DNA of 64,000 nucleotides from a virus. This document shows positions 3,437 to 49,446 of the stretch, in pieces. The notes under the pieces were generated by a model. The model was given only the letters and a program-made list of their open reading frames with translations. It was not told the origin of the DNA and ran no database searches. Within the stretch, counting starts at the first letter, position 1. Every line of letters starts with the position of its first letter. The DNA lies in the IMG/VR virus record IMGVR_UViG_3300021518_000005, positions 19,228 to 83,227 of that record; one strand, given 5' to 3'. A program made the position numbers and the translations under genes.

Positions 3437-4417
3437 TCATACATCCTTATGAATACAGACAAGATACGTTGATACGCCAGTGGGTCTATCACTCTCCAAG
3501 AATGCCCCATCTGGTAGCTTTTCAGCGATACCACCAACCGCATCAAGCCATGTACGAAATGCCACCGCTTTTTTTGTCGCCTGGAAGAATGGCGATGCGC
3601 TCATGACACTTACCATTTTTCCGCCATGCTTAAGTAGATCATACATATGCTGGACATGGGCAACATCTTGTAATTGCTCGAATGGCGGATTAGCAATGAT
3701 TCGATTATAGATACCAGGCTGATCGAATTCCATAAAATCATCAGCAATCAGCACATGGCCTTTCAGCTCAAGGATTTCGCGCAATCGCCAATTACACTCG
3801 ATAACATCAAGCCGCGCATCAGGATAGGTAGATCGCACCTGATCGGCAATACTTCCTTTGCCTGCACTTGGTTCCAACACACGCATACCTGACTGAATAT
3901 CTGCAAGCCACAACATCCGCGTAATAACCGATTGCGGCGTTGGGAAATAGCCTGGAATATCTAGGCCGACTAAGGCGCGCTCCCGTTGCACAATCTCACG
4001 TTCACGATCTGGCACCTGCGGCACATCCTGGGCTAACGCTAGGAGCATGACACGAGCAGCATCATACGTATGCTCATTCAGGCCCAACGCAAGCACTTTT
4101 GAATACGAATCATAGTGCGGCTTTGGACATTCTCCGTAGGTGCAAAGTAATTCCACGGCTGCCTTGGTTTTGACTTCTGCCAGCAACGACGGCACAATAC
4201 CAATGTCGTGCGCCCGTGCTAGCCCGCGTAGCAATGCTTGCAGCTGCTCCAATATATCAGCTTCGCGCTCCATAGCATCAATGATACGCATGCGTCGCGC
4301 CGTAGGCCGCTGCTGCGCTGTGCTGCTATTTCGTTTCTGCTGAATGGTTTTGTCAAGTGTCTGAGCAGCTTTGTATAGCCGCTCAGACACCATTGACGTG
4401 CGTTGTGTTGTGGTCAT
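3437..4417 (-). CDS. SAM-dependent (N6-adenine type) DNA methyltransferase-like protein
   Basis: YFPTP, VLEPSAGKG (motif I), IANPPF (motif IV). Confidence 0.8.
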   Translation of the reverse strand: MTTTQRTSMVSERLYKAAQTLDKTIQQKRNSSTAQQRPTARRMRIIDAMEREADILEQLQALLRGLARAHDIGIVPSLLAEVKTKAAVELLCTYGECPKPHYDSYSKVLALGLNEHTYDAARVMLLALAQDVPQVPDREREIVQRERALVGLDIPGYFPTPQSVITRMLWLADIQSGMRVLEPSAGKGSIADQVRSTYPDARLDVIECNWRLREILELKGHVLIADDFMEFDQPGIYNRIIANPPFEQLQDVAHVQHMYDLLKHGGKMVSVMSASPFFQATKKAVAFRTWLDAVGGIAEKLPDGAFLESDRPTGVSTYLVCIHKDV

Positions 4418-5505
4418 CGTAAACTCATCGGCATAATCACATGGACATAATCGCTCATGTTACCAACAGGACGCACAACAAGCGGCTGTGTGCTACTTTG
4501 CGTCTCAATAGACACTGTTTGCGTATCAAGTCGTGCTAGCACTTCCAGGAAGTAGAGTACGTTAATGGCAATAACCCCAACACCAGTAACGACAGCATCA
4601 ACATCACCTTGATTATCGCCCACCTCAGCAGCATTAGCACTCAACGTAATACCATCCGATGCCATTTCGAGCTTGATAACGTTTTGCGCATTGACTGCAA
4701 ACAACTTCGCAAGATTGACCGCTCGAATGAGTGCAAGCCGATCAACTACTGCCCGCGCCGTATACGAATCCGGCAGAATACGGCGGAAATCGGGATATTT
4801 TCCCTCGATTAGCCGAGACATGACTTGTGTCTCGTTGTCACTAAAAAAGACCTGATTAGCTGTCATGGCAACATGGCACGTATCGCCATGTAAGACTGAT
4901 GCAACGAGGGCCACGGTGCGCGCCGGAATAATGATCGGCGCATCCTCTTCGCCCTCAACTGCCAGCGTCTCTACGGCCATGCGAAAACCGTCTGCTGCTG
5001 CAATACTCAGTGCATTGTTGCGGCGCTCTAAAAGCACGCCAGCGAGCACGGGGCGGCTATCATCAGTTGCCGCTGCAATACCGACGCGCTCAAATGCATG
5101 CAGCAGTAACGCGCTAGGAAATGTATCTACAAAATCAGTCGGCATCGCGGGAACGGATGGAAACTCATCAGCATCAATACCCCTAATGCTTGTCTTAAAT
5201 CTTGATGCCTGTACCTGCAATGTTGCTTTTGTATTATCCCATGCCAGTGTCACGTCACCCTCTGGCAGCGCAGACACGACATCGGAGAGAAGTTTGAACG
5301 GAACAGTACCAGACCAATCCATAGTACTACGCGCCTGTAGTTTTGTGGTAATAGCCGTGTCGAGATTAGTACTACTCAGCGTTAACGTACTATCCTCGAC
5401 GCGCATGAGTACATTTGAGAGTACCGGCAACGTCGTTTTACCTGCGACCGACCGACCGACCAAGTTCAATTTTTTCTTAAACTCACCTTGTTGCACCGTT
5501 GTCAT
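4414..5505 (-). CDS. dnaN: DNA polymerase III beta sliding clamp
   Basis: 363 aa; LPVLSNVL, STNLD, SRPVLAGV, AADGFRMA, SRLIEGKYPDF, C-terminal VIMPM. Confidence 0.95.
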   Translation of the reverse strand: MTTVQQGEFKKKLNLVGRSVAGKTTLPVLSNVLMRVEDSTLTLSSTNLDTAITTKLQARSTMDWSGTVPFKLLSDVVSALPEGDVTLAWDNTKATLQVQASRFKTSIRGIDADEFPSVPAMPTDFVDTFPSALLLHAFERVGIAAATDDSRPVLAGVLLERRNNALSIAAADGFRMAVETLAVEGEEDAPIIIPARTVALVASVLHGDTCHVAMTANQVFFSDNETQVMSRLIEGKYPDFRRILPDSYTARAVVDRLALIRAVNLAKLFAVNAQNVIKLEMASDGITLSANAAEVGDNQGDVDAVVTGVGVIAINVLYFLEVLARLDTQTVSIETQSSTQPLVVRPVGNMSDYVHVIMPMSLR

Positions 5506-14518: not shown

Positions 14519-16204
14519 ATGGGCCTAGAAGGATTTGTTGTTATATTTTTCTTTGTACTGTTTATTGTGCTGGTTATTCGCTCGCTTTTGCGGCCTGAGA
14601 CCGCACACAGCGAATACAGCCGTGTAACGCCTACTACAATGCCTGTAGAGCGCGTTGACGTGGCTGAATATGGCAATCCAGCACTAGCCATCCTTGCATG
14701 GCTTTGGGCTGTATTTCGTATCGGTCTGTTCCATCTACAGCGGCGTCGGGAGAGGCCAGCACCAGCGATTACAAGCCAGGAATCTGTGTATGTTGTACAA
14801 GAGCGTGAATCTATGCCACGAGAGCGTGAGGCTGCATCAGAAATCCGGCAGCCGCAGGAAGTAAAGCAACCAGCACATCAGGCATCAGAAGGCCGTGTAA
14901 AGGACGTAGATACACGCGCAAACACCAAGGATCGCATGGCGCAGTTGCCAGCACATGCGCCCGATCCTGTTGATGACACGCGGGATCGCTTGAATATTCC
15001 TGTGCTGTTTGACGGCACACAGTATCTCTATCATCGCATGGGCAGCGGCCACAAAGCTGTTCTTGGCACCACAAATGGAGGGAAGGGTAACTTTCTTCGC
15101 TACTATGCGCTTATGTCGCTCCTAGCAGGGCCTGAGAACATGCGGCTTGTCGTGTTCGATGCAAAGGGCGGTGCTGATTACTGGTGGATTCATCAGATCG
15201 ATCATGCCGAACTGTATTTTACAGGCCCTGAAATACTCGATGAAGAAAAACCGATTGATGCACTTGAGGAAGGTCTCAAGGTGTATGTGCGTTTGATGTT
15301 GGAGCGCGGCCAAGCATTACAAGCCGCGCACGTAGAGAAAATTGATCTGTATAATGAAAAAGTAAGAAATGGAAGTGTAAATGGTTTTGAATGGCCGTAC
15401 ATTGTGGTTATTGTTGATGAAATTGCAGACTTCAGTAAAGAGGCAAAGAGTCTTGTCTCGACACTGACACGCATGGGCCGCGCTACTGGTTTTGATATTC
15501 TCGTAGCAACGCAGCATGCTACTGTTGAGGCGATGAGCACACAGATCAGTCGCAACCTGACAAACCGTTTTGCTTTCCGCCTGAACAGCTCCGAGGGTAC
15601 AGCCGTCGCCCTAGCGCGCACCAGCAATGATTACGGCAAGTATGAACCGAGCGTAATTGATCGGCCTGGTGTCGCCGTGTGGCGCGGCATGGGCGGCAAT
15701 GAACAAATGGGTCTTGTTCCATTTGTTGATCCGCTGATGGATGGCTTGCTTGCACAGTTGACAAGCAAGTATGGCAAGTCAAGTCAAGCAAGTATGGCAA
15801 GTCAAGTACTTGCACAAGCAAGTGCAAAAACAAGTGTCGTGGCAAGTCGAAAACAAGTACTTGACTTGCACGGGCAAGGCGAAGCAAGTGACACACTTGA
15901 CGACGATGCAAGTGCATACTTGTCTGAAGTACTTACCATACAAACGACTGATGCAAGTCAAGCAATCAGTCAAGGCAAGTCAAGGCAAGCTCCAGGCAAG
16001 TCAGAAGGAAATACAAAAACAAGTCGATGGCAAGGACTTGTTAACCAAGAAACACTTGCACAAGCAAGAGAGACTGTGCAAGAGATGGGTGATAAGGTAG
16101 GCGTCGTGGAACTGGCTCAGGCATTGTATGGTAAAAGCACGGGTATCTATTTTTATGCAGCACAAGAACTTCTTGCATTGTTGGAAGGAGAAAAATTAAC
16201 TTAA
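14519..16204 (+). CDS. FtsK/SpoIIIE (TraB-like) membrane-anchored ATPase
   Basis: N-terminal TMs; Walker A GTTNGGKG; VFDAKGG; Walker B VVIVDE; RMGRATG..LVATQ; possible C-terminal winged helix. Confidence 0.85.
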   Translation: MGLEGFVVIFFFVLFIVLVIRSLLRPETAHSEYSRVTPTTMPVERVDVAEYGNPALAILAWLWAVFRIGLFHLQRRRERPAPAITSQESVYVVQERESMPREREAASEIRQPQEVKQPAHQASEGRVKDVDTRANTKDRMAQLPAHAPDPVDDTRDRLNIPVLFDGTQYLYHRMGSGHKAVLGTTNGGKGNFLRYYALMSLLAGPENMRLVVFDAKGGADYWWIHQIDHAELYFTGPEILDEEKPIDALEEGLKVYVRLMLERGQALQAAHVEKIDLYNEKVRNGSVNGFEWPYIVVIVDEIADFSKEAKSLVSTLTRMGRATGFDILVATQHATVEAMSTQISRNLTNRFAFRLNSSEGTAVALARTSNDYGKYEPSVIDRPGVAVWRGMGGNEQMGLVPFVDPLMDGLLAQLTSKYGKSSQASMASQVLAQASAKTSVVASRKQVLDLHGQGEASDTLDDDASAYLSEVLTIQTTDASQAISQGKSRQAPGKSEGNTKTSRWQGLVNQETLAQARETVQEMGDKVGVVELAQALYGKSTGIYFYAAQELLALLEGEKLT

Positions 16205-16702
16205 GTTTTTTCTGGAATGCTCAAAAAGGCCCTGAAATAGCCCATTTTGGGCGACTTAAGCCCCGCGAGATGAAACTTAAGTTTTTCTTTCGGGGCTTTC
16301 TTTTGGCTTTGTAGTCATTAAAATCGAGGCTTAAGTTTTTTATTAGGCGACTTAAGTTTTCCATGCGCTTTTCAAAAACTTAAGTCGCTTGTGGGCAAAA
16401 ACTTAAGTTTTTGCAGACCATTTCAATCGGGCATAATCGTGTGCAGCAGACAAGAATCTCATGCTTGTACTTGACTTGGCAAAAAACAAGTAGGGCAATG
16501 ACTTGCACACTTGATACGCAATGCAAGTCAAACATTCTACTGGAACACTTGACTTGTTTTTCATCGAGCAATTCAGGCAAGTCAACTACTCATAAAGGCA
16601 AGTACAAAAACAAGTGAGGTGGCAAGTCCGGGCAAATCAAGTAGACAAGTCAAGCCTTGTTTCTTGACTTGCCAAAACAAGTACTTGACTTGTCTACTTG
16701 TC
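15760..16702. repeat. dense CAAGT/ACTTG and CTTAAG repeat field
   Basis: by hand count, >20 CAAGT/ACTTG in 15760-16060, 7 CTTAAG in 16199-16408 and ~19 CAAGT/ACTTG in 16460-16702. Confidence 0.85.
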
Positions 16703-17809: not shown

Positions 17810-17899
17810 GGGCTTAAAGCGTAGTAGGTAAACTGCGTGCCGACTGATCAGCGGCCCTGTGTAAGACACGGGTAGAGGGTTCGAGTCCTTCAAAGCCCA
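17810..17899 (+). tRNA. atypical tRNA, GAT anticodon, long variable arm
   Basis: GGGCTT/AAGCCC acceptor; extended D stem; CTGATCA loop; 7-bp variable stem; GAGGG-TTCGAGT-CCTTC T arm; no encoded CCA. Confidence 0.6.
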
Positions 17900-18340: not shown

Positions 18341-19915
18341 CTGAATCGCACTGGGATTGCTGGTGCTGTCGCCGCCGTTATTGTTACTGTTGTTATTGTT
18401 CTCCCGCATGGTTCCTCGACTGATGCGCCTCCGCCTGTATTTGTGACAGCTCACGTCATAACGGCTACAGCAGAATTGACCACTACACATCACGAAGATC
18501 CTACAAACACGCCAGAAGCGCCTACAGCCACCGAAACAGCTACGCTAGAGCCAACACACACCACTGAACCTACAATCCCTCCTGGGCCGTCTGAGAAACC
18601 TACGGAAGTCGTTACAAGCACTGCTACGACCACGACAACAAATACCGTAGATTCGACAGCAACATCTACGGCTGCCGCAACTTTTACACCCACGTCAGAA
18701 GCCTCTATAACGCCCACAGAAACACCTACAGCGAGCGCCACGGCCACTACGACGCCCACGCCTACGGCGGTTCCTACAGCCACTCCTGTGGTGTTCCTGG
18801 AAACGTTTGACGGATTGCCATCACAACCATTAGCCTTCTCAAGCAGCCAATGGGATATTATGGCGCACAGCCGTGATCCGTTGTATCGACAAGTTCCTGA
18901 GCCAATGGATGCGCAACATGACGGTGCAACATGCGATGTCCATGGCGCGCACACGATCACAACCTACACACAAACCGCGTTCATCTGCCGTAATCATCTC
19001 ATGACGGCTATTAAGGGAACTGACTACGCGATTGTGTACCTTGCGCCTAATGCCATGCTCGATTGGTCGCAAAACACAGCTACACTGCGTTTTGACGTTT
19101 CAACCATGCGAACGACAAGCCGCGATTGGTGGGATATTTGGATCACGCCATGGGGCGATGTGTTGTCGTATCCCTCTGATGGATCGTTTCCCGATGGGAA
19201 TGGCGAGCCGCGCAACGCCATCCACATTCGCATGAATCAGTTCAACGGCAAGACCACGTTTAACGTCAATCAAGTCGTGAATTATGTCTCATCGCCGGTG
19301 CCTGGTTCCATTGTCGGTGGCCGCGTCTACGAGAATGTATTAACACCGGATTATGTGCGGCGCGACACGTTTGAGCTACGCCTATCGAGCACACACATCT
19401 CGTTTTGCATGCCCGACTATACTCACTGTTGGGCTGATAATCTACCGTTGGCTACGTCGCTCGACTGGAATAGCGGCGTGGTACAGATCGGTCATCACTC
19501 CTACAATCCGCTGAAGGGCTGCATCGCGGGGCGTACACCATGTCAGCCAAATACCTGGCATTGGGATAATGTCCGCATGGAGCCAGCATTGCCATTCCAA
19601 ATCATTCGCAGCGCGCCGCGTGCCGCATCGCTCACAATTACGAACGACACATTGACACTTGAGCGGCCTGCACCAGCAGGCGCTATCGTTCGATTTTTGG
19701 CTATCGGGAATGCTATCGAGGTGTCATTCGACGGTGGCAATACATGGCAACCAGCCGTCAAGCGTGAGCAGGAAAACAATCAGCCGGAACGGTTCAGCTC
19801 GTATTGGATGCCGATACCGGAAGGCACCACAGCAATCAAGGTTCGCGGCCAACGTTGGACAAGCAGCAGCGCAGGTGATTGGTGGGTTCACTCGCTCAGT
19901 GTGTGGGCGCGCTAG
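18341..19915 (+). CDS. membrane-anchored or secreted protein with Thr/Pro-rich linker and beta-rich domain
   Basis: TPT-rich linker; frame extends upstream of 18443 through a hydrophobic helix to CTG 18341, after AAGGAG; start uncertain. Confidence 0.7.
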   Translation: MNRTGIAGAVAAVIVTVVIVLPHGSSTDAPPPVFVTAHVITATAELTTTHHEDPTNTPEAPTATETATLEPTHTTEPTIPPGPSEKPTEVVTSTATTTTTNTVDSTATSTAAATFTPTSEASITPTETPTASATATTTPTPTAVPTATPVVFLETFDGLPSQPLAFSSSQWDIMAHSRDPLYRQVPEPMDAQHDGATCDVHGAHTITTYTQTAFICRNHLMTAIKGTDYAIVYLAPNAMLDWSQNTATLRFDVSTMRTTSRDWWDIWITPWGDVLSYPSDGSFPDGNGEPRNAIHIRMNQFNGKTTFNVNQVVNYVSSPVPGSIVGGRVYENVLTPDYVRRDTFELRLSSTHISFCMPDYTHCWADNLPLATSLDWNSGVVQIGHHSYNPLKGCIAGRTPCQPNTWHWDNVRMEPALPFQIIRSAPRAASLTITNDTLTLERPAPAGAIVRFLAIGNAIEVSFDGGNTWQPAVKREQENNQPERFSSYWMPIPEGTTAIKVRGQRWTSSSAGDWWVHSLSVWAR

Positions 19916-20155
<240 letters not shown>

Positions 20156-46980: not shown

Positions 46981-47150
46981 ATTCCGCATCACAATGCGGG
47001 GTGTGGAAACGCACAAGGGGGGGTGTGGGAATCCACACTCCAATAAATAAGGAAGCAGACATGATCATACAGACATGATCTTTGTTTGCATGCGGCAAAT
47101 GCATCGAACCTGCCGCGCTGCGCTTGGCCGCTCGCTGCGCTCACGCAAAA
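46981..47150. repeat. origin-like region B, related to region A
   Basis: attccgc.tc.caatgcg..gtgtggaaacgc shared with 9047-9078; CAGACATGATC x2; gcgctgcgcttg..cgctc.ctgcg shared with ~9317-9345. Confidence 0.65.
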
Positions 47151-47392: not shown

Positions 47393-47421
47393 TTGACAAT
47401 ATCTTACCGACATGGTAAGAT
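47393..47421 (+). promoter_or_regulatory. promoter/operator copy 13, upstream of the RNA-guided nuclease
   Basis: TTGACA-17-TAAGAT; TCTTACC-GACAT-GGTAAGA. Confidence 0.85.
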
Positions 47422-47428
47422 GAGATGT

Positions 47429-49009
47429 ATGAAGATGAAGCGAGCGCCACGACCTCACACAATTGAACGCACGTACAAGTACCGCGTGTACTTAACACCG
47501 CATCAAGAACGCCTTATTGCCTCTTGGCAAGAGGTATTACACACCTTGCAGAGACGTGCAATTGTGGAGTATCGTGACTGGCTCAAGCATTCTAAGCAGC
47601 AACATGCGCTTGGATTGCAGCCAGAATACAAAGCGCCATCGTTTTTTTCATGGACAAAAGACCTGACACAGTGGCGGCATGATGATCTTGCTGTTGCTGC
47701 GGTGCCTTGTGAAATTGAGCGAGCCATACTGAGGCGTGTGTATCTCGCCTATCAAGCCATGTGGCAGAAATGGAAGCAAGGCAAGGAGGCGTGGCCGAAA
47801 TATGCACGACATAGCAAGGATATTGGTTTAACGTTTCAGGGTACTCATCGTGGTACACGTCTGCTTGCTGACACAGGGCGAATCCGACGATGGGTATTAG
47901 CTGGAAGTGGTGAACTTGGCACCATCAAGGTTCGCATGCATCGACCATTACCGGCAGGAGTCATTGTTAATCAAGTGCATTTGACGCCATCCGCCGATGG
48001 ATGGCATGCCTCGTTTACTTGCACTATTCCGGCTGTGGATGAATCATTGCCATCGACAGGCATGCAGATCGGTGTTGATCTGAACGTCAAGCACGATGGT
48101 GATGTGCAACAGGTTGCTGCTGTCAGTGATGCACGCCTGTATAAGCAGATCAGTCATCTCAAGCGCAATATGAAATTACTGGCGCATTTACAGAAAATGG
48201 CATCAAACCGGCGCGTGCATGCAAACGCTAAACACGCTGATCCTGCCAGTAAGCGCACGGCTAAACGTAAAGCACGAATTGCCAAAATCCACCAGCGCAT
48301 TCAACGGCAACGAGAGCATACGCAGCAGTATATTGCCAAGCGCCTTGTTGATAGTGCTGATGTGATTGTATTCGAGCAACTGAATCACACGGCGATGCGC
48401 AGTAGTGGCAAGAAAAAACGCAGTAAACAGGCAGAGTATATCGAGCCAGTATTGCCAACAAAAAAGAAGCGGGTTAAGCTTGGTTCAAAAGCGGCAGCCC
48501 GAAAACGAAAACGCGGCCTTAATCGTGCATTATCAACTGCTGCACCAGGTCGATTAATTGCCTTAACGAAAGAAAAGTCAGCCAAGGCAAGGCGTGATGT
48601 GCGTATGGTGCCAGCACACAATACATCACAGATGTGTTCAGTGTGTGGGGATATTAACAAGCATCAGAAAAAGACACTTGATATTCGTGCATGGACATGT
48701 GCCAAGTGTGGCGCACAGCACGATAGAGACATTAACGCGGCTCGGAACATTCGAGCACGCGGGTTAGGCGAAGAACCTACGTTCAGTGGGGGATTGCGCG
48801 GAGAGGCTGCTGCACCTCGGTGCGAACGGCAGTCGAAGGATAGTGATACGTCATTATCTGAGTACCGCGAAGTGGTTCAACCACAGGTGGTGAGAAACAC
48901 CGCCGATCACATACATCAACATACGACAGCAACGCTTGTTCGCAACTCGCGACGGAAAACACGCATTCCACAAGTTGCGGGACAAATGAGCTTTTTTGAT
49001 CACGTTTAG
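47429..49009 (+). CDS. tnpB: TnpB-derived compact type V (Cas12f/n-grade) RNA-guided nuclease, 526 aa
   Basis: TYKYRVYLT N-terminus; RuvC-I GVDLN, RuvC-II VFEQL, CSVC/CAKC zinc finger, RuvC-III DRDINAARNI; adjacent CRISPR array; no tnpA nearby. Confidence 0.9.
   Translation: MKMKRAPRPHTIERTYKYRVYLTPHQERLIASWQEVLHTLQRRAIVEYRDWLKHSKQQHALGLQPEYKAPSFFSWTKDLTQWRHDDLAVAAVPCEIERAILRRVYLAYQAMWQKWKQGKEAWPKYARHSKDIGLTFQGTHRGTRLLADTGRIRRWVLAGSGELGTIKVRMHRPLPAGVIVNQVHLTPSADGWHASFTCTIPAVDESLPSTGMQIGVDLNVKHDGDVQQVAAVSDARLYKQISHLKRNMKLLAHLQKMASNRRVHANAKHADPASKRTAKRKARIAKIHQRIQRQREHTQQYIAKRLVDSADVIVFEQLNHTAMRSSGKKKRSKQAEYIEPVLPTKKKRVKLGSKAAARKRKRGLNRALSTAAPGRLIALTKEKSAKARRDVRMVPAHNTSQMCSVCGDINKHQKKTLDIRAWTCAKCGAQHDRDINAARNIRARGLGEEPTFSGGLRGEAAAPRCERQSKDSDTSLSEYREVVQPQVVRNTADHIHQHTTATLVRNSRRKTRIPQVAGQMSFFDHV
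48906..48946 (+). ncRNA. putative tracrRNA anti-repeat inside the effector 3' end
   Basis: ATCACATACATCAACAT is a 15/17 match to the repeat reverse complement; CTTGTTCGCAAC complements the repeat 5' end with one bulge. Confidence 0.6.
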
Positions 49010-49025
49010 CGCATTCTGGTGCAGG

Positions 49026-49244
49026 GTTGCGACAAGATCATGGTGATGAATGTGATTGAAAGAAGCTGAACGGCATGGGCATTCCCTCACCATCAGCGGC
49101 AGTTGCAACAAGATCATGGTGATGAATGTGATTGAAAGTGGCGAGAAGTTGCACCATTACTTGTGCAGTTAGCAAGTTGCAATACGGTGTTACTGATATA
49201 TGTGATTGAAAGAACAAAGTATTGTTGATATATGTAATTGAAAA
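49026..49244 (+). CRISPR. mini CRISPR array: three 37-nt repeats plus a partial fourth, two spacers
   Basis: GTTGC(G/A)ACAAGATCATGGTGATGAATGTGATTGAAAG at 49026-49062 and 49102-49138; degenerate copy 49176-49212; spacers 39 and 37 nt. Confidence 0.9.
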
Positions 49245-49446
49245 ATCAGCATGATACAGCAACAAAAACATCACATCTAAACATGAGTCCTACACATGTA
49301 AAATATTGGTTAATTTCTTTGCCATTACTCGATATGTCGCATTGGAATGCGGTATCATAAAGATGAGTACATTGTTATACAATTGACTTGACATTGGTTT
49401 TAGATGTGATATAGTTGTCGAAGTTTCATTTAGCCGTGTCGGGAAC

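Follow-up and report, generated by a model that had tools for sequence, protein, structure and literature searches.

A phage-borne TnpB-family nuclease gene followed by a short CRISPR array: a probable compact type V CRISPR-like module

When a TnpB-family nuclease gene in a phage ends just before a short CRISPR array, is it a transposon gene that has come to rest there, or does it belong with the array in an RNA-guided module of the phage itself? This question is raised by the IMG/VR virus record IMGVR_UViG_3300021518_000005, a record of 83,227 bases that is about 85% complete and of which we analysed positions 19,228 to 83,227, a stretch of 64,000 nucleotides (nt) hereafter called the window, with coordinates counted from its first letter. 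We consider it probable that the phage carries, at 47393 to 49244, a compact type V CRISPR-like module made up of a TnpB-derived RuvC endonuclease of TranC/Cas12-U grade, a short array, and a scaffold resembling a trans-activating CRISPR RNA (tracrRNA) that would be encoded on the same strand within the ~80 codons that close the nuclease gene.

The nuclease gene and the arrays of its clade

The nuclease gene lies on the plus strand at 47429..49009, as delimited by its open reading frame (ORF), profile matches, the alignment of its clade and a structural model. The ORF runs from a TTG at 47393 to the end of the stop codon at 49009; reading from the ATG at 47429 gives a protein of 526 amino acids (aa), with the TTG and the in-frame ATGs at 47420 and 47435 as alternative starts, and the database copy of the protein (P0001) comprises 524 aa. 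NCBIfam guided_TnpB (NF040570), a broad model for RNA-guided TnpB endonucleases, was matched with 176 bits (cut-off 100), and the Pfam zinc-ribbon domain Cas12f1-like_TNB with 67.8 bits; the Pfam models OrfB_IS605 and HTH_OrfB_IS605 scored under their cut-offs. Both the RuvC triad D217 (GVD), E316 (FE), and D434 (HDRD) and the CxxC..CxxC zinc finger (C403/C406/C424/C427) are invariant in a 25-sequence alignment of the clade. The AlphaFold2 model has a predicted local distance difference test (pLDDT) score of 79 overall and of about 90 across most of residues 11-450, which divides the protein into a core (residues 1-450) and a tail (residues 451-526) that is predicted to be disordered (pLDDT about 33). 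Foldseek placed the model closest to the solved folds of ISDra2 TnpB (template modelling (TM) score 0.76-0.79 on the target, E 6e-18) and ISFba1 TnpB, next to AsCas12f (TM 0.63-0.67), with LaTranC lower. With its TnpB fold, intact catalytic triad and zinc finger, the nuclease belongs to the TnpB superfamily, and the profiles and the clade alignment agree with the preliminary description of this locus, which was made from the sequence alone and spoke of a 526-aa TnpB-family protein with three RuvC acidic residues and a zinc finger. The core of ~450 residues also makes the nuclease a candidate miniature editor. Residues 327-360 constitute a Lys/Arg-rich RuvC insertion of ~30 residues that is absent in most clade members and is predicted to be disordered.

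The array follows the stop codon of the nuclease gene after a gap of 16 nt. Repeat detection located CRISPR repeat 1 (37 nt, 49026..49062) and repeat 2, which is 97% identical to it (49102..49138), with spacer 1 (39 nt, 49063..49101) between them; spacer 2 (37 nt, 49139..49175) separates repeat 2 from a degenerate terminal repeat 3 (73% identical, 49176..49212), and a remnant of the 3′ part of the repeat (49222..49244, within a 62% copy at 49208-49244) marks the decayed distal end of the array, all of these on the plus strand. These coordinates agree with the 37-nt repeats and the 39- and 37-nt spacers described previously. Past the array lies a 31-nt imperfect inverted repeat with arms at 49251-49281 and 49399-49429, the distal arm of which overlaps a strong promoter-like site of the next operon (TTGACA-16-TATAGT, 49388-49415).

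A word-indexed search returned 25 homologues of the nuclease with 37-50% identity and E values no worse than 3.5e-66, followed by generic TnpBs at 27%. The DNA context of this clade, which includes about 30 further proteins, is available at four loci, namely the window and those designated L005, L283, and L085, of which the first three are intact. L005 is a 75-kb viral contig that encodes a homologue with 39% identity and carries eight 37-nt repeats spaced 71-75 nt apart; the array begins 24 nt before the stop codon, so that the ORF ends within repeat 1. L283, a 32-kb viral contig, encodes a more divergent homologue of 478 aa (388 bits on the clade profile), and its five 37-nt repeats lie about 530 nt downstream of the nuclease gene. 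L085 belongs to a Herpetosiphonaceae metagenome-assembled genome (MAG) and retains a nuclease remnant (3968-4779), N-terminally truncated and frameshifted, between genes for an ATP-binding cassette (ABC) transporter binding protein and a histidine kinase; the scaffold stems discussed below are retained at this remnant locus, and no array was found there. Downstream arrays are thus present at three of the three intact clade loci, all of them phage contigs. The repeats vary by locus (GTTGCRACAAG...ATTGAAAG; GTTGCAATGG...GGTGCAAG; GTTGCAGCGG...GGTGCAAC) and every spacer is unique. A check of whether homologous loci lack arrays or always carry the same spacers, as suggested in the preliminary description, therefore found arrays at both other phage loci, with repeats and spacers that differ.

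Terminase genes adjoin all three intact loci. The terminases of L005 and L283 share 35% identity, and that of the window has no detectable relation to either; the phages that carry the module therefore belong to two or more lineages.

A structured RNA in the tail codons of the nuclease gene

The DNA coding for the tail is conserved among the window, L005, L085, and L283. In the window it overlaps, on the plus strand, a structured scaffold RNA of tracrRNA- or omega-RNA-like appearance (48776..48904), which is delineated by its covarying stems: Stem0 (48776-48790), StemA, whose outer strands are 48797-48801 and 48865-48869, StemB (48872-48884), and StemC (48886-48904). Covariation was assessed on five sequences, one each from the window, L005, and L085 and two copies from L283. 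Stem0 is paired in 25 of 25 cells, five of its five pairs are altered on both sides, and its covariation score (1.26, compared with 0.29 shuffled) was reached by 0 of 500 shuffles. The outer pair of StemA alternates between A-U and G-C from locus to locus, while StemB forms a different perfect hairpin at each locus, and even the two copies in L283 differ there by a compensatory change. In addition, a 330-nt window transcript folds better than 100 of 100 shuffles (z = -3.26).

In L283 the scaffold-homologous stretch is intergenic, lying past the stop codon, and is duplicated (4531-4634 and 4878-5058). The first copy, just after the nuclease gene, ends in a hairpin and a T-run; the second has a TATAAT of its own and runs into the array, beyond which lies a terminator. 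Such a non-coding position is hard to explain via conservation of the protein.

Adjoining the scaffold of the window, an anti-repeat (48903..48947, plus strand) was recognised by its duplex energy; it consists of two blocks, one of them complementary to the 3′ part of the repeat and the other to its 5′ part. The duplex amounts to -30.1 kcal/mol, which 0 of 500 shuffled repeats reached, and the pairing is also present in the minimum free energy fold of the contiguous transcript. The equivalent block of L283 reaches -35.3 kcal/mol (4 of 500 shuffles). This significance holds for searches limited to the region from scaffold to array, as in a wide scan over 3 kb and both strands the anti-repeat was not separable from shuffles. 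The tail codons thus coincide with a structured RNA whose stems covary, and this RNA is accompanied by an anti-repeat to the local repeat at two of the three loci. An nhmmer search with the scaffold matched only clade loci and none of the other TnpB loci compared, including those from Chloroflexota, and so linked it to no particular right-end RNA. Nevertheless, the clade may offer a compact natural series for the passage from a right-end RNA to tracrRNA plus CRISPR RNA (crRNA), with stages that include a scaffold overlapping the ORF, a free-standing and duplicated scaffold with its own promoter, arrays of 2 to 8 repeats, and a decayed cellular remnant.

These pairings bear on one alternative, namely that the array is a stand-alone viral mini-array that borrows the Cas proteins of the host and that the adjoining TnpB-like gene has nothing to do with it. 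The available text of PMC11656645 documents mini-arrays of viruses, one or two spacers long, that rely on host effectors, and the phage record itself contains no adaptation genes. Gene and array, however, adjoin at three of three intact loci despite differing repeats and the unrelated terminase of the window, and at two loci the scaffold linked to the gene carries an anti-repeat to the local repeat. Moreover, the window repeat was found in no array of 401 genomes sampled from the class of the MAG that holds the L085 remnant (G001, Chloroflexota); a 27-base consensus pattern did not find it elsewhere in IMG/VR, and Rfam gave no CRISPR-DR match to the repeat and none to the scaffold. We therefore regard a borrowed mini-array as very improbable.

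Phage setting, lineage and known systems

Ahead of the nuclease gene lies a sigma-70-type promoter (TTGACA-17-TAAGAT, TG-extended, 10 of 12 consensus positions) at 47393..47421 on the plus strand. Between and over its hexamers sits a palindrome, ATCTTACC-GACAT-GGTAAGAT (47401-47421, plus strand). The pattern ATCTTACC-N5-GGTAAGAT is matched 15 times in the window, against an expectation of 0.10 and with 0 of 100 shuffles coming near, at positions 630, 1554, 5881, 8581, 8835, 10915, 17065, 24918, 32628, 45672, 47401, 55296, 56917, 57683, and 58904; all of them are in plus-strand register and apparently at operon starts. As judged from this distribution, the palindrome is a phage-wide operator for a predicted repressor, and since the same site recurs throughout the phage, the nuclease is part of a regulon that belongs to the phage. 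The -10 hexamer ends 7 nt upstream of the ATG at 47429, and L005 displays the same geometry (TTGCAA-17-TATAAT, then ATG); from this short distance at both loci we infer that the nuclease mRNA is likely leaderless, with a start at about 47428. Upstream of the promoter, two tandem 22-nt copies that are 77% alike and CACAATGCGGGGTGTGGAAACG-like occupy 46990-47033.

The neighbours of the nuclease are phage genes, encoding a Sak4-like protein, a peptidase, the terminase large subunit and a portal protein, and the nuclease is present in one copy in the whole record. Pfam finds no match to Cas1, Cas2, Cas4 or Y1 TnpA anywhere in the 83,227 bases; as regards a linked TnpA, this covers the Y1 type, and a serine-recombinase TnpA was not searched for. 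The preliminary description had placed a phage operator-promoter before the nuclease, had noted that tnpA, cas1, cas2, and cas4 are absent from the window, and had portrayed a TnpB-derived nuclease tied to an array and domesticated by a phage. The recurring operator, the searches of the full record (for tnpA, of the Y1 type), the single copy, and the arrays at three intact loci all bear this portrayal out.

The lineage is a rare one. When 1.84 billion representatives were searched exhaustively with a profile, 40,098 TnpB-family proteins were recovered at E values up to 0.001, while on the clade profile only 12 representatives of the same 1.84 billion scored at least 381 bits, the next score being 236. 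A scan of IMG/VR with a clade-specific sub-alignment contributed one new locus, L283, whereas L284 and L285 were discarded as clade loci (weak matches of 33% over 52 aa, without arrays). Full-alignment scans of metagenomes and genome contigs gave, among the matches listed, mostly generic TnpBs and only L085 from the clade. Besides, the best clade-profile matches in the 401 Chloroflexota genomes are multi-copy TnpBs with at most 233 bits. A quick maximum-likelihood tree (IQ-TREE, midpoint root) of 93 proteins, comprising 27 clade rows, 31 Chloroflexota TnpBs, and 35 generic TnpBs without reference Cas12f, Cas12n or TranC, recovered the 27 clade rows as monophyletic, with a Shimodaira-Hasegawa-like approximate likelihood ratio test (SH-aLRT, the only support measure computed) of 100, on a stem that measures 1.08 changes per site. 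The clade is thus a well-separated and apparently phage-restricted lineage, every intact locus seen being in a phage.

Could the gene still be an ordinary transposon TnpB, a remnant of an IS200/IS605 or IS607 element that landed in a phage, with an array produced by chance or by slippage duplication of the right end and with no role but retention or homing? The broad TnpB model is the only one that the nuclease passes, ISDra2 TnpB has the closest fold, and the omega-RNA-like scaffold overlaps the 3′ end of the ORF as it does in TnpB; furthermore, the window array has just two good repeats, and the cellular remnant L085 has no array at all. Nevertheless, a phage-wide operator, a single copy and the absence of a Y1 TnpA are not what this origin would lead one to expect, and the protein scores far under the cut-offs for IS200-type TnpB (NF038281, 116 bits against 425) and IS607-type TnpB (NF038280, 66 bits against 350). 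Two other phage loci hold regular arrays of five and eight repeats with unique spacers, and the long stem parts the clade from the multi-copy Chloroflexota TnpBs. Taken together, we deem an ordinary transposon TnpB decidedly unlikely. A simple array detector also flagged seven non-clade loci among 308 sequences, duplicates included (L021, L062, L071, L125, L209, L236, and L280), of which L062 and L280 were inspected. The flag at L062 was dismissed as a 15-nt coding periodicity. L280 (1071-3551, Chloroflexota) holds an IS200/IS605 insertion sequence with a Y1 tnpA and a 421-aa tnpB, ~60 nt away from an array in which a 37-nt host-type repeat occurs 11 times; it shows that an insertion sequence landing beside an existing array, which is an alternative route to such an adjacency, looks very different from the clade loci.

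A phage-domesticated module is in keeping with systems described elsewhere. About 50 independent TnpB-to-Cas12 origins and 40 Cas12-U groups, mostly with an array downstream and no adaptation genes and many from metagenomes only, are reported in the available text of Altae-Tran et al. (2023; PMC10691335). TranC proteins are described, in the available parts of citing papers (10.64898/2026.03.27.714800; 10.1101/2025.09.28.678669), as transposon-CRISPR intermediates that arose by splitting of the right-end RNA, and one clade, CauTranC9, comes from a Caudoviricetes genome, so that a phage-borne example like that of the window is already in print. With TranC and Cas12-U the window shares a TnpB-sized RuvC effector, a downstream array without cas1, cas2 or cas4, a guide that is apparently split into a scaffold and repeat-spacer units, and a short array (medians of about 5 repeats are given in these texts). 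The groups could be compared by description, and on that basis their repeats, given as 32-36, 36 or 38, and 38 nt, differ from the 37 nt of the window. LaTranC matches the window protein weakly (phmmer E 1.4e-12 over 80 residues, TM 0.58), and the long tail sets the protein apart from CauTranC9 as described there.

In architecture the closest counterpart is Cas12n (V-U4/V-N; RdCas12n, PDB 9J09), which likewise has about 500 aa, a disordered C-terminal tail and an array without adaptation genes. Its tracrRNA overlaps the part of the ORF that codes for the disordered C-terminal loop, according to the available text of PMC12216341, much as the scaffold and anti-repeat of the window (48776-48947) lie inside the ORF that encodes the disordered tail 451-526. 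The phmmer alignment of Cas12n with the window protein extends over residues 157-442. By sequence, an assignment to Cas12n was rejected: on the Cas12u4 profile (PDLC00933) the window, L005, and L283 proteins score only 99, 147, and 96.5 bits, whereas ordinary multi-copy cyanobacterial TnpBs reach up to 276 and an Actinomadura candidate, a probable true member, reaches 367. The clade was likewise rejected as c2c8 or Cas12f2, as the protein fails the curated NCBIfam cut-offs (c2c8 (V-U2), NF038192, 89 bits against 350; CRISPR_Cas12f2, NF049972, 49 bits against 450).

Resemblances to other families are partial. ISDra2-type TnpB is the best structural match and has the same domain order and a same-strand scaffold overlapping the gene's 3′ end, and a window transcript reading through into repeat 1 and spacer 1 would resemble its omega RNA; the window differs in having no Y1 TnpA, a single copy, phage regulation, and repeat-spacer units in place of a single flanking guide. 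Cas12f/Cas14 (V-F) provides the best PADLOC model (Cas12f, PDLC01691, 133 bits, followed by Cas12u2 with 125), a good structural match in AsCas12f, and the use of a tracrRNA, whereas sequence matches to solved Cas12f chains are confined to the C-terminal ~55-90 residues. Cas14a repeats are 37 nt long with GTTGCA...GCAAC ends, like the repeat of L283. CasPhi/Cas12j and CasLambda are also phage-borne single effectors with a short array and no adaptation module; unlike the window protein they have 700-800 aa and use crRNA only, and CasLambda matches the model weakly (TM 0.38-0.47).

The best reading is therefore a phage-domesticated, tracrRNA-type compact type V effector, TranC/Cas12-U-like in kind and most like Cas12n in architecture. 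As for an independent TnpB-to-Cas12 transition, which the preliminary description had put forward, the long and fully supported stem, the failed c2c8 and Cas12f2 cut-offs, and the Cas12u4 scores under those of ordinary TnpBs make it plausible within a comparison that covered ordinary TnpBs and the c2c8, Cas12f2, and Cas12u4 profiles. The lineage is either new or possibly catalogued already, and such systems, phage-borne ones included, are in print; since the kind of system is established, the finding should not surprise specialists. What the locus adds is a rare phage-restricted lineage to the growing number of TnpB-to-Cas12 intermediates, and its points of interest are the apparent phage restriction, the series from an ORF-overlapping to a free-standing scaffold, and the clamp-like tail discussed below.

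Possible function, spacer targets and the C-terminal motif

If the locus operates as a CRISPR-like module, transcription from the operator-controlled promoter would yield a leaderless mRNA that reads on into the array, and the scaffold would pair with each repeat, for spacer 1 perhaps in cis, in the manner of a transposon right-end (omega) RNA. The resulting ribonucleoprotein would then find, and with its RuvC domain cut, DNA that matches the 37-39-nt spacers beside a protospacer-adjacent motif (PAM), and a likely role would lie in conflicts with other phages or mobile elements that share its host. Because the phage record encodes no adaptation proteins, new spacers, if any, would have to come from adaptation proteins acting in trans or from recombination.

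Spacer targets were sought for all three arrays in GenBank phages and in the three phage records themselves, for the window and L005 arrays in the 401 genomes, and for the two window spacers, as exact 24-mers, in IMG/VR. Several candidates were set aside: 82% matches of spacer 1 in several genomes, which fall on the opposite strand of a gene for a resistance-nodulation-division (RND) pump and in one case in an unrelated membrane protein; further weak matches in a PolA gene and a sugar-isomerase-like gene; and a 22-nt self-match of an L005 spacer, which is gapped and of low complexity (acidic codons). With no protospacer found, no PAM could be deduced.

Several points weigh against a CRISPR-like module of this kind. 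Intact loci with DNA number three only, and the window array is tiny and decaying, with two good repeats, one degenerate repeat and one remnant. The stem registers were chosen visually, and of the five sequences used two are paralogous. In L005, no anti-repeat of the homologous region stands out from shuffles (395 and 214 of 500 reach the duplexes), and the repeats of L005 and L283 fold on themselves into terminal hairpins of -10 and -14 kcal/mol, which would permit a tracrRNA-free mode. In the sequences searched, none of the 13 spacers that the three loci hold together gave a credible protospacer. Moreover, everything functional about the module is deduced from sequence.

Some of the same observations could also be accommodated if the nuclease were RNA-guided but no weapon between elements, and instead cut or bound the host chromosome or its defence loci, regulated phage genes, or worked tracrRNA-free through a self-folding repeat. 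The lack of phage or plasmid protospacers, the packaging genes that adjoin all three loci and the terminal hairpins of the L005 and L283 repeats are compatible with this, and miniature type V effectors that act as repressors, such as Cas12m, are described in the available text of PMC11656645. Yet the catalytic triad is intact throughout the clade, unlike that of Cas12m or Cas12k, and self and host matches of the spacers are no better than chance; besides, missing matches carry little weight for spacers that stem from an uncultured community. We consider such a non-weapon role unlikely, though less so than a mere transposon remnant, and continue to favour the CRISPR-like module. Of the proposals made previously, use against competing elements gained no credible protospacer, and reliance on host adaptation machinery gained no host array with the window repeat in the 401 sampled genomes, so that both stand as reasonable guesses.

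The most unusual feature of the nuclease is a putative clamp-binding motif at its very C-terminus. Codons 48983..49006 on the plus strand encode QMSFFDHV, which resembles the bacterial beta-clamp-binding consensus QL[SD]LF and was singled out by motif counts in the clade. Many long-tailed clade members end in Q-[LMI]-x-[LMF]-[FW], for instance QMSFF (window), QLSLF, QLSFF, QIGLF, and QLHMF, and QLSLDL is another clamp-like ending among the relatives. Within the last 16 residues a strict motif occurs in 7 of 22 long-tailed clade members compared with 1 of 233 other TnpBs, and a loose motif in 12/22 compared with 4/233; between the window and L005 the codons of the motif differ and the residues are kept. 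The phage also encodes a DNA polymerase III beta clamp, DnaN (4414-5505, minus strand; TIGR00663, 263 bits, cut-off 138). We tentatively speculate, while rating the idea as doubtful, that the tail is doubly coded, its DNA providing the guide scaffold and anti-repeat and its protein a disordered linker ending in a putative clamp motif, such that the nuclease might ride on the phage-encoded DnaN and survey the replicating DNA of rivals. If the motif is real, RNA-guided targeting would be linked to the replisome. A literature search that combined clamp binding with TnpB and Cas12 yielded nothing on Cas12-type effectors. To our knowledge, a clamp-tethered CRISPR effector has not been described, and the one precedent found is a remark in PMC3971601. 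The available text of that paper (Gomez et al., 2014) names QLSLF as the clamp motif searched for and mentions, for cyanobacterial IS200/IS605 OrfB, a putative C-terminal motif.

Elsewhere in the window, a simple repeat detector reported a 4-copy periodic repeat at 16198-16412. The tRNA calls differ by tool, as ARAGORN predicts a tRNA-Ile(GAT) at 17810-17899 and Rfam another tRNA at 20011-20082, and neither reports that of the other.

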